DNA from: an uncultured archaeon
Lineage (GTDB): Archaea; Asgardarchaeota; Heimdallarchaeia; Heimdallarchaeales; Heimdallarchaeaceae
Assembly: GCA_964534625.1 (NCBI GenBank)
Contig: CAZHRF010000027.1
Span: 1 to 43,234 of the forward strand
DNA length: 43,234 nucleotides
Reading direction: 5' to 3'
Below, piece by piece: positions 5,601 through 11,805 of the stretch; the stretch's first letter is position 1; every line of letters begins with the position of its first letter. The notes under the pieces were generated by a model. The model made no database searches, was not told where the DNA came from, and saw nothing but the letters and a program-made list of their open reading frames with translations. The translations under genes and the position numbers were made by a program.

Positions 5601-8600
5601 TATTTACATCTACTGATAAAATGGAAGAGGAGATATTTACATCTACTGATAAAATGGAAGATTTTAAATGCATTGAAAATACATCAAGTGATCCCACAAT
5701 AACTTCAACTAGACCATCACCAGAGTCTAATCTAAACCTAAACCAAGCCAAATCTAACCATATCTTTCAAGATGAATGTGATGATTATGAAAAGTATATA
5801 ACTTCCTTACCAGATTCTTCTAACTTATCAGTAATCTCTTTAATATCTGAATCTGACGAAATGGGTATTGATAGTGATTTACTTTCAACAAAAAATTATT
5901 CTTCTGCTTTTTGGTTTAGACAAGCATACACTCTGTCTAACCAAAACTCTTTCGTTCAATTGATGAATTCTACAACTTCTCGTTTGAATTCTAATACTTT
6001 TGTAGATAGAAGATTATTGTTATCAATAATATTTAGTCAGATGACTTTTCTACAAGGATATAAACAAGCAATTTCTTATAAAAGTAATTTAGATTCTTCA
6101 CTTTCTTTTAAAGATATTATAAACACTATTGGATTACAAGATGAAATTAGAGTTATTGGTAATAATATGAAAAAAAGATGGTATGATAGTGCTTTTATTC
6201 AAATAGCAAGTATGTTTAATATTGAACTAGAAAATAATGGTAACGAGTTGGGTTTGGGGATGTTAAAGGGTGCTCTCCCCTATTTTGATATAATAGTGGG
6301 ATTAGAACGGCATGTTTGGACAATAAATAGATTACTAGAAAACTCTGATCCCTATCAGAAAGATTATGATTCTTTATGTTACGAAATATGGAATAATTGG
6401 AGAGAACAACTGAATTATTTAATGGGAACAGCTGAGCTTCCATTTTTTGGAGAAAAAAGTCAAATAGGCGCAAAAGAGTTTCGTGATGGCGTCTTCATAT
6501 TTAAAAAGAACAGTAAGAATTTTTGGGAAGTATCATTGGCTATGGACAAATTAACTTTAATGCACAATACTGTTTCCGTTAAAGTAGAAAATATCTTTGA
6601 TTATTATCGTTGGTGCTATTCTAGATTAGGAACAGATTTTATTTTTCCAAATGGTGCAGTAGAGGTTAAAAACAGGAAAGACACATCAGAAAGAAGTTTT
6701 AGGAGAGCTTTTCGAATAAGTCAATCGTTTGCTTCTGCTCTCTATCATAATAGGCTAAGGTTGCCTATATTAGACACTAAAAAAAGAAAAATACTTGATT
6801 TACCAGAAATACGTAAAAAAGTTGCATTAGAGCAATACTATACTGAAGATGACGCGATAAATAAGATTTATTATCATCTAAAAAACTTCATAACAGAACA
6901 TGGATTATCTGCACTTAGAAGAAGCATAATACATGATATGGACTATAACCCTGAATATTTTAACTCATTAACAATGGAGCGTTATATAAAAAAATTGTAT
7001 TTATCCGCGATATTCTTTGATCATATACATCAACCACTCTTAAGATTAAGTTCATTAACCGATAAACACATGATAACATTTAAGCTGGTTTCTAAAGATT
7101 TGGACAACTATTATGTAGATGAAGTTTTAGTGCCTTGTTCCTATTATCCAGAAGTCAAAATAGATGATAAAAGCGTTCTTAAAGTAGTTTTGAATGATAG
7201 TGAACATGGATTTAAACAAGTCGTAAAAGATGTAAATAATTCAGAAGAAAAAGGCAAATTACTTTTTGCTTTTTCAACTTTACGAGGTGTAAAGAATTCA
7301 TTAAAACGAGACGATATAATTTGCTTTGGCATCGAGCAAAAAAGTAAAATAGATATGTTTTACATACCTACAGACGAGTTGATACAACGGTATCATAAAA
7401 TTCAGAATACAAAAAACGAAAATCATTGTATTTATGAGGATCTAACCAATCTAGAAAAAATTGCATGGATAGGTGAAAATAGTGGTTATGGGCTATTTAA
7501 AGATGTAAGAATAAATGGAAATGATTCTGCCATTATCTCAGTTCGTAATCTCTTTCAATTCTTTTATGTAGAAAATGTTGATGATGAAGGAAAAACAGTT
7601 TGGAAAAAGAAAGATGGAATAAAGATTAATTTTGAGAGTTGTTCATCGGAAGGTATCGATATTGACAGTTCTTGGAAACCCTATAAAACTCTAGATGGAG
7701 ACTATTTATTATTATTGAGGAAACAGAACGGTAGTGTATTATTTAAACCGCTAAACATAAATGGTAGTCTTATTTATCCTGGTTCTTTTAGTTTAAGAAG
7801 AGGATTAAATAGAGTTTATATGGGAAATGAAAAAGCACCTTTGAATGTTATAACAAATGTTGCTGAAGTAATGATTAGATTTCTTACAACGGGACAATTA
7901 CCAATTTTTGTATGGAAAAAAGGAAAATTAGTCAGAATATTTTTGGATGGAAAAACAGCAGTAAAGGAATTAAGAACAATAAAGAAAAAAATCGTTAGAT
8001 ACAAAGCCAGTAACTACAAAGAATACGTGGAAGAATATAATAATTATATAGAAAAATTGTATGATGAAGGAATAATAGGGCAACTATCGTATGAAGCGTT
8101 AATAGACAAAATAGCTGATACTATCAATTATTATGTTGAATTGATGAAATATGCGCCCAGGATGGTTGATTATAGTAATGTGCAAGATGATAAACCTATC
8201 TTATGTGAGGAATATAACTCACCAAGTCCAAATCCGTTTTTTATATATCATTATCTCTCTTTTCAAACAAGTGAAGAATATTTTACTAAACATCCAAATA
8301 AACATACAAAAACCTTATACAATCATTATTCAACATTTGAAAATGAAAATAATAAAAATGTCTTTAGACACTTAGATGGGTATCTATGTGCAAAATATCA
8401 TAATCTGTGGGAAAATGGGGAAAATCTACCTGTGGAATACGAGATCAATAAAATTCCAGTAATAAAGAGCATTGACTGCGTATTGTTCAAATTCTTATCT
8501 AAATACGATTACATGGAAAATTTCTGTAAAATAAACGATTTAGTGACCATGGAAAAAGGAAAAAGCAAAGTAATCAACTTCTTTAATAGTTTTAACAGAA

Positions 8601-10161: not shown

Positions 10162-11805
10162 ATGTCTCCTTCTGATTCTCCTCCTCCTGGTTCTGATTCT
10201 TCTTCTGATTCTTCTCTTGATCTTTCTTCTATTTTTTCTGAGATCAAGGATCTTTTACTTCTCGAGTCTGATCTTTCTCCTCGTATTATTTCTCGTATTA
10301 AGCGTCACGTTTCTGGCAAGTATCATCTTTCTTCTTTTCCTCGTCACAGTGACATTTTATCTATTTGTTCTCCTTCTGAGCGTTCTGTTCTTCTTCCTCA
10401 TCTTATGAAGCGCAAGGTTCGCACTCTTTCTGGTGTTGCCATTGTTGCTGTTATGTCTCGTCCTTGGCCTTGTCCTCATGGTCAATGTATCATGTGTCCT
10501 GGTGGTCCTTCTGTTGATCGTCCTCAGAGTTACACTGGTTACGAGCCTACTGCCATGCGTGGTCTTCGTCACTCTTATGATCCTTATTCTCAAGTTTCTG
10601 ATCGTCTTTCTCAGCTTTCTTCTATTGGTCATTCTACCGATAAGATTGACATTATCATCATGGGTGGTACTTTTACTTCTCATCCTATTTCTTACCAGCG
10701 TTGGTTTATTCAACGCATTTTTGATTCTCTAAATGGTGTTGATTCTTCTTCTCTTTCTTCTGCTCACCTTCTTAATGAAACTTCTTCTCATCGTTGTGTT
10801 GGTATTACTGCTGAGACTCGTCCTGATCAGATTTCTCCTTCCATTCTTGATCTTCTTCTTTCTTTTGGTGTTACTCGTTTAGAATTAGGTGTTCAGACTG
10901 TTTTTGATTCTATTCTTTCCGCTATTTGTCGTGGTCATGGTACAGCTGAGACCATTCGTTCTTTCCAATTATCTCGTGATTCAGGTTTTAAGCTTACCGC
11001 TCATATGATGCCTGGTCTTCCTGGTTCTTCTTATGAGCAAGATCTCCGTTCTTTTGACATTTTATTTAATGATTCTCGTTATAAACCTGATGAGATCAAA
11101 ATTTATCCTACTATGGTTATTCCTAACACTCAGTTATATGCTGATTGGAAATCCGGCAAATACCAAGCTCTTACTAATGACGAAGCAGCTGAGTTAGTTG
11201 CTGCCATTAAGGCCAAAGTTCCTCCTTATGTTCGTATTAAGCGCGTTTTACGTGATATTCCTGCTCATCAGATTTCTGCTGGTCCTACTAAAAGTGATTT
11301 ACGTTTGCTTGCTCAATCTCTTTTAGCTGACCAAGGAAAAACTTGTCGTTGTATTCGTTGTCGTGAGGTTGGTCATTATCTTTACAAAGACAAGGGTGAT
11401 TTTGATCCTTCTGCCATTTCCTATATTAATCGTAGTTTCGAAGCTGGCGGCGGTATAGAGCATTTTCTTTCTTATGAAGAGACCGACCATGATGTTATAA
11501 TTGGTTTTTTACGTTTACGTGAGTTAAGTGAAGATGCTTTTCGTCCTGAATTTACTTCTGAACCTACTATAGTTATTCGTGAGTTACATGTTTATGGTGA
11601 ATCGGTTGGTCTTCAGTCTTCTATTCGTGATGATCTTCAATGGCAACATAAAGGTTATGGGACTAAACTTTTGACCCATGCTGAAGAAATAGGGCGAGAT
11701 AAAGGGTATACCAAAATTTCCGTTATTTCGGGCGTTGGTGTAAGGGAGTATTACCGAAAATTTAATTATAGCTTGGATGGACCTTACATGTCGAAAAAGC
11801 TTTGA
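10162..11805 (+). CDS. elp3: Elp3 tRNA uridine(34) acetyltransferase (radical SAM + GNAT)
   Basis: RTLSGVAIVAVM, CPHGQCIMCPGG, QSYTGYEP, MGGTF, ETRPD, ELGVQT, RELHVYG, QHKGYG, ISGVGVREYY. Confidence 0.97.
   Translation: MSPSDSPPPGSDSSSDSSLDLSSIFSEIKDLLLLESDLSPRIISRIKRHVSGKYHLSSFPRHSDILSICSPSERSVLLPHLMKRKVRTLSGVAIVAVMSRPWPCPHGQCIMCPGGPSVDRPQSYTGYEPTAMRGLRHSYDPYSQVSDRLSQLSSIGHSTDKIDIIIMGGTFTSHPISYQRWFIQRIFDSLNGVDSSSLSSAHLLNETSSHRCVGITAETRPDQISPSILDLLLSFGVTRLELGVQTVFDSILSAICRGHGTAETIRSFQLSRDSGFKLTAHMMPGLPGSSYEQDLRSFDILFNDSRYKPDEIKIYPTMVIPNTQLYADWKSGKYQALTNDEAAELVAAIKAKVPPYVRIKRVLRDIPAHQISAGPTKSDLRLLAQSLLADQGKTCRCIRCREVGHYLYKDKGDFDPSAISYINRSFEAGGGIEHFLSYEETDHDVIIGFLRLRELSEDAFRPEFTSEPTIVIRELHVYGESVGLQSSIRDDLQWQHKGYGTKLLTHAEEIGRDKGYTKISVISGVGVREYYRKFNYSLDGPYMSKKL

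Follow-up and report, generated by a model that had tools for sequence, protein, structure and literature searches.

We analysed a 43,234-nt stretch of DNA (hereafter the window), which is contig C27 of a 3.37-Mb genome of the family Heimdallarchaeaceae (G000; 120 contigs) originating from a microbial mat. In this stretch, the small ribosomal protein gene rps30e lies between a very long orphan open reading frame (ORF) and elp3, and all three genes are on the + strand. Within rps30e, the + strand changes from purine-rich to pyrimidine-rich. Below, the skewed stretches on either side of such a flip are called arms, and the strand running 5'→3' away from the flip centre is called the leaving strand. 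The features at the flip are as follows.

9889..9922, no strand: flip centre by change-point estimate, best point 9910, about 35 nt inside rps30e
9875..10072, + strand: rps30e (eS30; Pfam PF04758), 65 aa, the anchoring gene, presumed highly expressed
8378..9874, + strand: left arm, purine-rich on the + strand by four-fold counts, made up of the 3' 1.4 kb of the big ORF plus the spacer 9803-9874
9911..11661, + strand: right arm, pyrimidine-rich on the + strand by four-fold counts in elp3
10073..10161, + strand: T-rich spacer by base counts (T 64 of 89), with a TTTGC microsatellite of 5.6 copies at 10088-10115
10162..11805, + strand: elp3 by domain matches (radical SAM and GNAT), with an N-terminal extension rich in Ser, Asp and Pro

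The flip persists where the encoded protein imposes no constraint. At four-fold degenerate sites, 83% of the bases in the left arm are purines (8378-9799; A64 G23 T12 C6; p = 4e-14) versus 2.7% in the right arm (10165-11661; T233 C23 A5 G2; p = 3e-60), with a genome-wide baseline of 47%. The portion of the big ORF far from the centre is normal (45%). Within rps30e itself, five of seven four-fold sites before 9910 are purines and none of the 31 after it (p = 4e-5), and the lysine codons change from AAA (three, before the flip) to AAG (four of five, after it). Both spacers follow, with A39 G13 T17 C3 on the left and T64 G11 C8 A6 on the right; the latter probably contains an oligo-T terminator of rps30e, judging from its sequence. 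The site is the top A-T flip of the whole genome (score 0.584, standard deviation 0.084). These results bear out an earlier reading of the sequence (the original prediction), which had placed a flip in rps30e on the strength of the codon switch, the spacers and two hand counts (9721-9780 and 10201-10260), both of which are exact. The symmetry, described there as mirror-like, is in truth two-fold, i.e., that of a reverse complement. The expected decay does take place on the kilobase scale, but not as a smooth fade by 11.5-11.8 kb: the arms are unequal, and the right one forms a plateau up to ~11,660 and then falls rapidly.

An assembly chimera or chance low-complexity sequence has practically no chance of being the explanation. 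Contigs of one run break at the microsatellite at 10088-10115. However, contigs from runs X3 and X4 (which may be source samples) cross 8169-14000 unbroken and with zero differences, and a relative that is ~91% identical and comes from an independent study (X5) has a single contig over 9674-13497 with the same layout. In addition, the rps30e-elp3 synteny is kept across the order, and a long-read complete genome has the same pattern. An assembly join at the flip, a possibility that the original prediction itself had raised, is therefore ruled out by the spanning contigs. No closer relative was found in metagenome or genome collections. The differences to X5 are mostly purine ones left of the centre and pyrimidine ones right of it. 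At the amino-acid level, rps30e differs from X5 in 6 of 64 codons, compared with 0 of 60 between G004 and G007, two complete Heimdallarchaeum genomes of the same family that share 88% ANI (p = 0.03).

The bias is strong enough to have altered a conserved protein. The elp3 gene is the most pyrimidine-skewed among 2,669 genes. Over 522 alignment columns, its product has 63 Ser, 25 Lys, 26 Glu and 7 Asn, whereas 24 orthologues have 17-35, 31-49, 37-50 and 11-25, respectively; the sum of Lys, Glu, Asn and Ile is 100 versus 131-166, and Elp3 fails the composition test. Since the orthologues of 29 relatives lack the bias, the skew is not a property of the protein, and the original prediction was right to regard it as specific to the position rather than to the gene.

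The prediction of a single fixed site did not hold. The window contains a second centre of the same polarity:

28862..31892, no strand: flip centred on the tRNA-Gln(UUG) gene at 30477-30549, z = 6.1

A scan of G000 yielded 46 two-armed purine-to-pyrimidine steps versus 15 of the opposite sense, and 17 versus 0 under a strict criterion. With a threshold of z > 3 for tRNA genes and spacers, 16 of 45 tRNA genes flip, none of them in the opposite sense, compared with 37 of 946 other spacers (p = 9e-11). Further centres lie at the 3' ends of the signal recognition particle (SRP) RNA and of 16S, and at actin, a pilin-like gene, uL6 and argF. The flip at rps30e shows a purine-rich strand pointing to the centre, A/T dominance, independence of gene direction and decay within a few kb, with an anchor that is not a tRNA. 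Centres are found near 5' ends (rps30e, actin) or near 3' ends (uL6, argF), so neither promoter nor terminator alone can be the rule. Flip centres also coincide with two tRNA genes that carry introns (G000 C10:2586-2710 and C60:10801-10905). Long or one-armed skewed blocks with no visible centre also occur (G000 C26:1-19000, where they reach up to ~18 kb; C47:18125-21602; the ends of C45 and C63), and these are possibly centres lost in assembly gaps or shifted by rearrangement.

We compared these results with G004, sampled over 1.55 Mb, with G025 from another family, and with other Asgard genomes through 9-15 tRNAs each. In G004, 21 of 39 tRNA genes flip (one, beside 16S, in the opposite sense). 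Flips also lie at 16S, at 23S, at actin and where the ribosomal protein operon ends. In G025, flips are located at 9 of 13 tRNAs and at rps30e (z = 9.8), whose purine-rich upstream neighbour is fen1; the anchor thus moves with its gene. G000 and G004 share actin as a centre, and rps30e is at most a faint one in G004. A flip at a protein gene common to two families points to heavily transcribed units as the rule and speaks against a causal role of tRNA integration sites. The mean tRNA step is 0.12-0.30 in G000, G004 and G025 versus -0.02 to 0.11 in 12 other Asgard genomes. The flips are general within part of the Heimdallarchaeia; most of the other sampled Asgard genomes show them weakly or not at all.

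The anchor is a heavily transcribed unit and not a motif or an origin defined by cdc6 or by an origin recognition box (ORB); expression levels are presumed here from gene identity. Three comparisons point to the transcribed unit. First, the strength of tRNA flips correlates between G000 and G004, which belong to two genera (rho = 0.56, n = 38, p = 3e-4; pairs set by hand from anticodons, automatic pairing being too noisy). Redundant C34 tRNAs are weaker, although only as a trend (p = 0.05 and 0.14). Second, the centre of the ribosomal protein operon lies at the 3' end of uL6 in G000, where the operon is split, and at uL15/secY in G004, where it is intact. Third, in the 16S arm of G004, both flanks of a 5.5-kb insert are skewed but the insert itself is not, which also indicates that the bias accumulates slowly. 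The genes that split the operon after uL6 in G000 (C1:176703-178612) are unrelated to it. An element with leucine-rich repeats (LRR) and a LAGLIDADG gene between 16S and tRNA-Arg(UCU) has been described (PMC8813620) and is carried by G004. In its LAGLIDADG gene by 16S (L124:17497-18117), purines make up ~4% of the four-fold sites, a skew on a par with that of elp3, and the LRR insert upstream is unskewed.

Given such anchors, an obvious explanation would be that transcription itself mutates the non-template strand in the ordinary way, or that codons are selected for expression, but we consider this very unlikely. The spacers flip as well, and the elp3 orthologues are unbiased. Moreover, the sense strand of the highly expressed uL6 is purine-rich and that of actin pyrimidine-rich. 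Neither process accounts for arms that extend over genes irrespective of their orientation, a point that the original prediction had already made from the three genes at rps30e.

The arms themselves were characterised at 16 strong tRNAs of G004. The upstream arm equals the downstream arm, the same is true for genes of either strand, and the skew halves in ~3 kb. Arms that are equal and independent of direction point to a process symmetric about a point. The leaving strand is poor in purines, above all in A, over ~2-5 kb irrespective of the genes covered. Its log-odds shifts are +1.5 for T/A and +1.1 for C/G, and, at two-fold sites, +0.77 for G/A and -0.1 for C/T; the approaching strand mirrors them. 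The shift is independent of neighbouring bases, and all eight four-fold boxes move together. We found no sequence-context signature (dipyrimidine, WA or T-run), and the motif search across centres that the original prediction had proposed returned no shared motif, hairpin or inverted repeat. At the rps30e centre, there is likewise no motif, hairpin or ORB (fold z = +1.4), and none of the inverted repeats listed is centred on 9889..9922. The bidirectional, strand-asymmetric mutational process originally proposed thus stands as regards its two arms, whereas mutation is one of several possible causes: the composition fits mutation, repair and selection alike, and on its own it cannot separate lesion-driven mutation from biased repair or selection. 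According to the models, four-fold A/T and two-fold A/G divergence near strong centres would be 1.1-1.5 times background under lesion-driven mutation, and 0.85-0.97 or less under biased repair or selection.

Two other candidates were rejected. Gene junctions have mean steps of ≤0.02, whether convergent, divergent or tandem, and arms are missing around most copies of five repeat families, which speaks against mobile elements as centres. Regarding copies of miniature inverted-repeat transposable elements in arms, the sole diverged copy has a symmetric spectrum, and a tandem duplicate within an arm of G004 arose too recently to serve for dating. A non-autonomous element of ~390 nt (L101:3220-3603; G000 C9:22220-22603) has at least 11 full copies, several of them by tRNA genes or RNase P RNA; its ends presumably resemble those of IS200/IS605.

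Symmetry about a point raises the question of replication. A canonical Orc1/Cdc6-ORB origin was rejected for the rps30e site: there is no adjacent cdc6 and no ORB, the centre lies in coding sequence and the arms halve in ~3 kb. As predicted, no orc1/cdc6 gene is near: the window contains none, the three cdc6 genes of G000 being on C1 and C2. The cdc6-1 gene of G000 is T-rich, but within a wider skewed stretch. In G004, we observed no chromosome-scale skew over the 1.55 Mb, and none of the three cdc6 genes has a clear flip; the ORB consensus, which may not be the lineage's own origin motif, is not clustered at these genes.

Fixed fork-pausing or fork-meeting sites would be compatible with both the symmetry and the local scale. 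There, copying of the last few kb would leave its own pattern of errors (T→A on the approaching strand), and tRNA and rRNA genes do pause forks in other organisms. Nevertheless, we regard such sites as improbable. The approaching strand would be the exposed one, yet T→A, T→C and G→A are unlike spontaneous single-strand damage, and dozens of termini would require equally many origins, of which none was seen. Among the three candidates originally named (origin, fork-meeting site, break or resection site), the polarity of the transitions would favour an origin-like opening over fork meeting or the exposure of canonical 3' tails, albeit indirectly.

Our tentative preference, held at somewhat below even confidence, is that an origin-like opening or a two-way fork restart at heavily transcribed genes exposes the outward strands, which then lose purines. 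The duplex at such units would be opened repeatedly, and DNA synthesis would start or restart both ways without ORB sequences, either primed by R-loops or D-loops or following transcription-replication conflicts. The outward parental strands, as lagging templates, would be single-stranded for the first few kb. Purines would be lost from them, and abasic sites copied with A would fix A→T and G→T, while deamination of adenine and cytosine would contribute smaller A→G and C→T shifts. In the long term, the composition now seen at synonymous sites, in spacers and at weakly constrained amino acids would be the equilibrium of this process. We infer the opening, the exposure and the lesion chemistry alike from the following observations. 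Assuming that the bias stems from single-strand damage, it must be the leaving strand that is exposed, because the signs of A→T, G→T, A→G and C→T all match. Both transitions shift as expected for deamination of the leaving strand, yet less than A→T. A model combining the A-rule with deamination fits with three parameters (chi2 0.6-18). At human origins, an A→G excess on the lagging template has the same polarity as here (PMC2817419). R-loop-primed initiation should take place at heavily transcribed units, and the enrichment of tRNA genes (p = 9e-11), together with the centres at 16S, SRP, actin and ribosomal proteins, agrees with this. RNase HI was not found in the genomes with strong flips (G000, G004, G007 and G025) and was found in G012, G001 and G031, where flips are weak. 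A Y-family polymerase is present.

A number of observations weigh against this preference. RNase HI was also not found in G030, G151, G132 and G095, which have no flips. Flip strength follows presumed transcription poorly, as the 23S of G000 shows little and more than half of its tRNAs none. Unlike in hypermutation, only 3 synonymous changes to X5 exist in ~95 elp3 codons near the centre. Single-stranded DNA should also suffer far more C→T than observed. Furthermore, the skew of an ordinary origin would extend to the next terminus instead of dying away within 3 kb, which obliges us to postulate a special early phase of the putative initiation. The Y-family polymerase, gyrase and endonuclease IV (Nfo) do not track the flips. 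Nfo has no match in G004 and G007, and a match in all 13 other genomes searched. The gyrA of G004 and G007 is split by a 1.3-kb in-frame insert that is probably an intein.

The low synonymous and high amino-acid divergence from X5 would be accounted for by fixation bias, which belongs to a different explanation. Recurrent double-strand breaks at heavily transcribed genes, with resection over a few kb and biased homologous repair, could generate the arms, and we see this as a contender, though an unlikely one. The bias would come either from error-prone resynthesis of the leaving strand or from heteroduplex correction that cuts pyrimidine-pyrimidine mismatches while purine-purine ones persist. 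Two-armed symmetry at ~3 kb agrees with breaks, as this is the typical scale of resection tracts, and mouse meiotic hotspots reportedly have purines 5' and pyrimidines 3' of their centres. A candidate for such correction is encoded in the window:

22856-23659: NucS/EndoMS mismatch endonuclease

EndoMS cuts T/T, G/T and G/G, but not A/A, A/C or C/C (PMC4838380), which gives the right sign for A/T and for both transitions. The sizes, however, are wrong: the literal specificity with equal weights fits poorly (chi2 146-307), and the model fits only with free mismatch weights, i.e., four parameters for five numbers. A tRNA flip is missing from the three genomes with no NucS match (G030, G031, G095; mean step -0.024 to 0.014), and all 11 NucS-positive ones reach ≥0.019; the correlation is weak because the genomes share ancestry and several of those with NucS have steps close to zero. 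Finally, the apparent intein site in the gyrA of G004, a likely break site, has no flip.

Selection on strand composition itself also has to be weighed against the preferred origin-like opening. A-poor, pyrimidine-rich outward strands might curb read-through and antisense transcription driven by strong promoters, or guide a directional DNA translocase to the genes at the centres. U-rich RNA is a termination substrate and forms weak RNA:DNA hybrids. A model of purine/pyrimidine preference plus avoidance of A needs only two parameters (chi2 1.7-8.3) and fits as well as the lesion model, which is a further point against the latter. The common shift of the eight four-fold boxes and the low synonymous divergence in the core also agree with selection. 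However, an excess of T next to T, as expected if T-tracts were built, is missing, as is any motif at centres, and the arms upstream and downstream are equally strong. Such selection would come at a cost to the elp3 mRNA over 1.5 kb, and the sense strands of uL6 and argF are 89-100% purine before their centres. In addition, thousands of single sites, up to 5 kb off, would each need selection. We therefore judge selection doubtful, below breaks though ahead of fork meeting.

In shape, the flips resemble known skew jumps; they differ in scale, size and spectrum. The origin jumps of bacterial and archaeal oriC and those at human CpG islands share the gene-independent, two-armed sign change at a point, and the human case, which is also promoter-linked, shares the A→G excess on the leaving strand (PMC2817419). 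In contrast to these, the skew here fades in 3-5 kb instead of ≥100 kb, has the A/T transversion as its main change, reaches 97% pyrimidine at four-fold sites and comes with neither ORB nor cdc6. Animal mitochondrial strand displacement and R-loop-primed initiation (constitutive stable DNA replication, ColE1-type) have in common a composition gradient arising from distance-dependent exposure. Such displaced-strand systems have ties to tRNA and rRNA genes and to missing RNase HI, but they have a single arm in which C→T and A→G prevail, whereas the flips are two-armed and run from purine to pyrimidine. Break hotspots and biased gene conversion, known from meiotic hotspots and from damage-induced localized hypermutability, offer two-fold symmetry, kilobase reach and amino-acid fixation; the centres here are housekeeping and RNA genes of a prokaryote, with an A/T bias instead of a GC-directed one. 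Polar motifs (KOPS, SRS, Chi) and the poly(dA:dT) turnstiles of yeast promoters likewise have a purine-rich strand toward a fixed site, but the flips have no motif, shift every synonymous site free of context, have dozens of targets and extend over kilobases, not 100 bases. We found no description of this pattern in archaea or Asgard in the literature searched, which covered few subscription papers.

The surroundings of rps30e include two further genes.

2678..9802, + strand: orphan ORF, 2,374 aa, no Pfam match, skewed only in its last ~1.4 kb
11802..12389, + strand: 195-aa gene between elp3 and a helix-turn-helix gene, unskewed, marking the end of the right arm

The orphan ORF has no homologue of similar length, and by tblastn it is not beside rps30e in the relatives examined. 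Its N-terminal part is membrane-like, and paralogues of two of its pieces, 8054-8240 and 8387-8453, occur on C29 and C96. The ORF may thus have arisen by fusion, or it may belong, with the type I restriction genes upstream, to an integrated element. The end of C27 overlaps that of C96 by 55 nt inside this type I restriction-modification locus (window 1-2209), and the C27/C96 junction is a flip centre too, purine-rich before and pyrimidine-rich after. The 195-aa gene is not at this place in G004. Behind it, a seven-base tandem repeat of 6.7 copies occupies 12401-12447, and the X5 relative skips 12386-12440. Between gar1 and nucS, multi-copy insertion-sequence fragments (33 self-matches) fill 21229-22586.

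Whichever mechanism applies, a force so strong and local has not been described for prokaryotes in the literature searched. It rewrites conserved proteins and also affects ribosomal proteins, actin and the flanks of rRNA genes, i.e., markers that are used to place eukaryotes among Asgard archaea. The flips also provide fixed, ranked positions for asking where Asgard replication begins, in a genus available in enrichment culture. It is conceivable, though on balance we think it unlikely, that Heimdallarchaeia start or restart replication in a eukaryote-like manner at dozens of sequence-independent sites set by transcription, of which the flips would be the genomic record in both location and strength. 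If such sequence-independent initiation is true, sites and strengths would be readable from the genomes of uncultured lineages within the Heimdallarchaeia, close relatives of eukaryotes.

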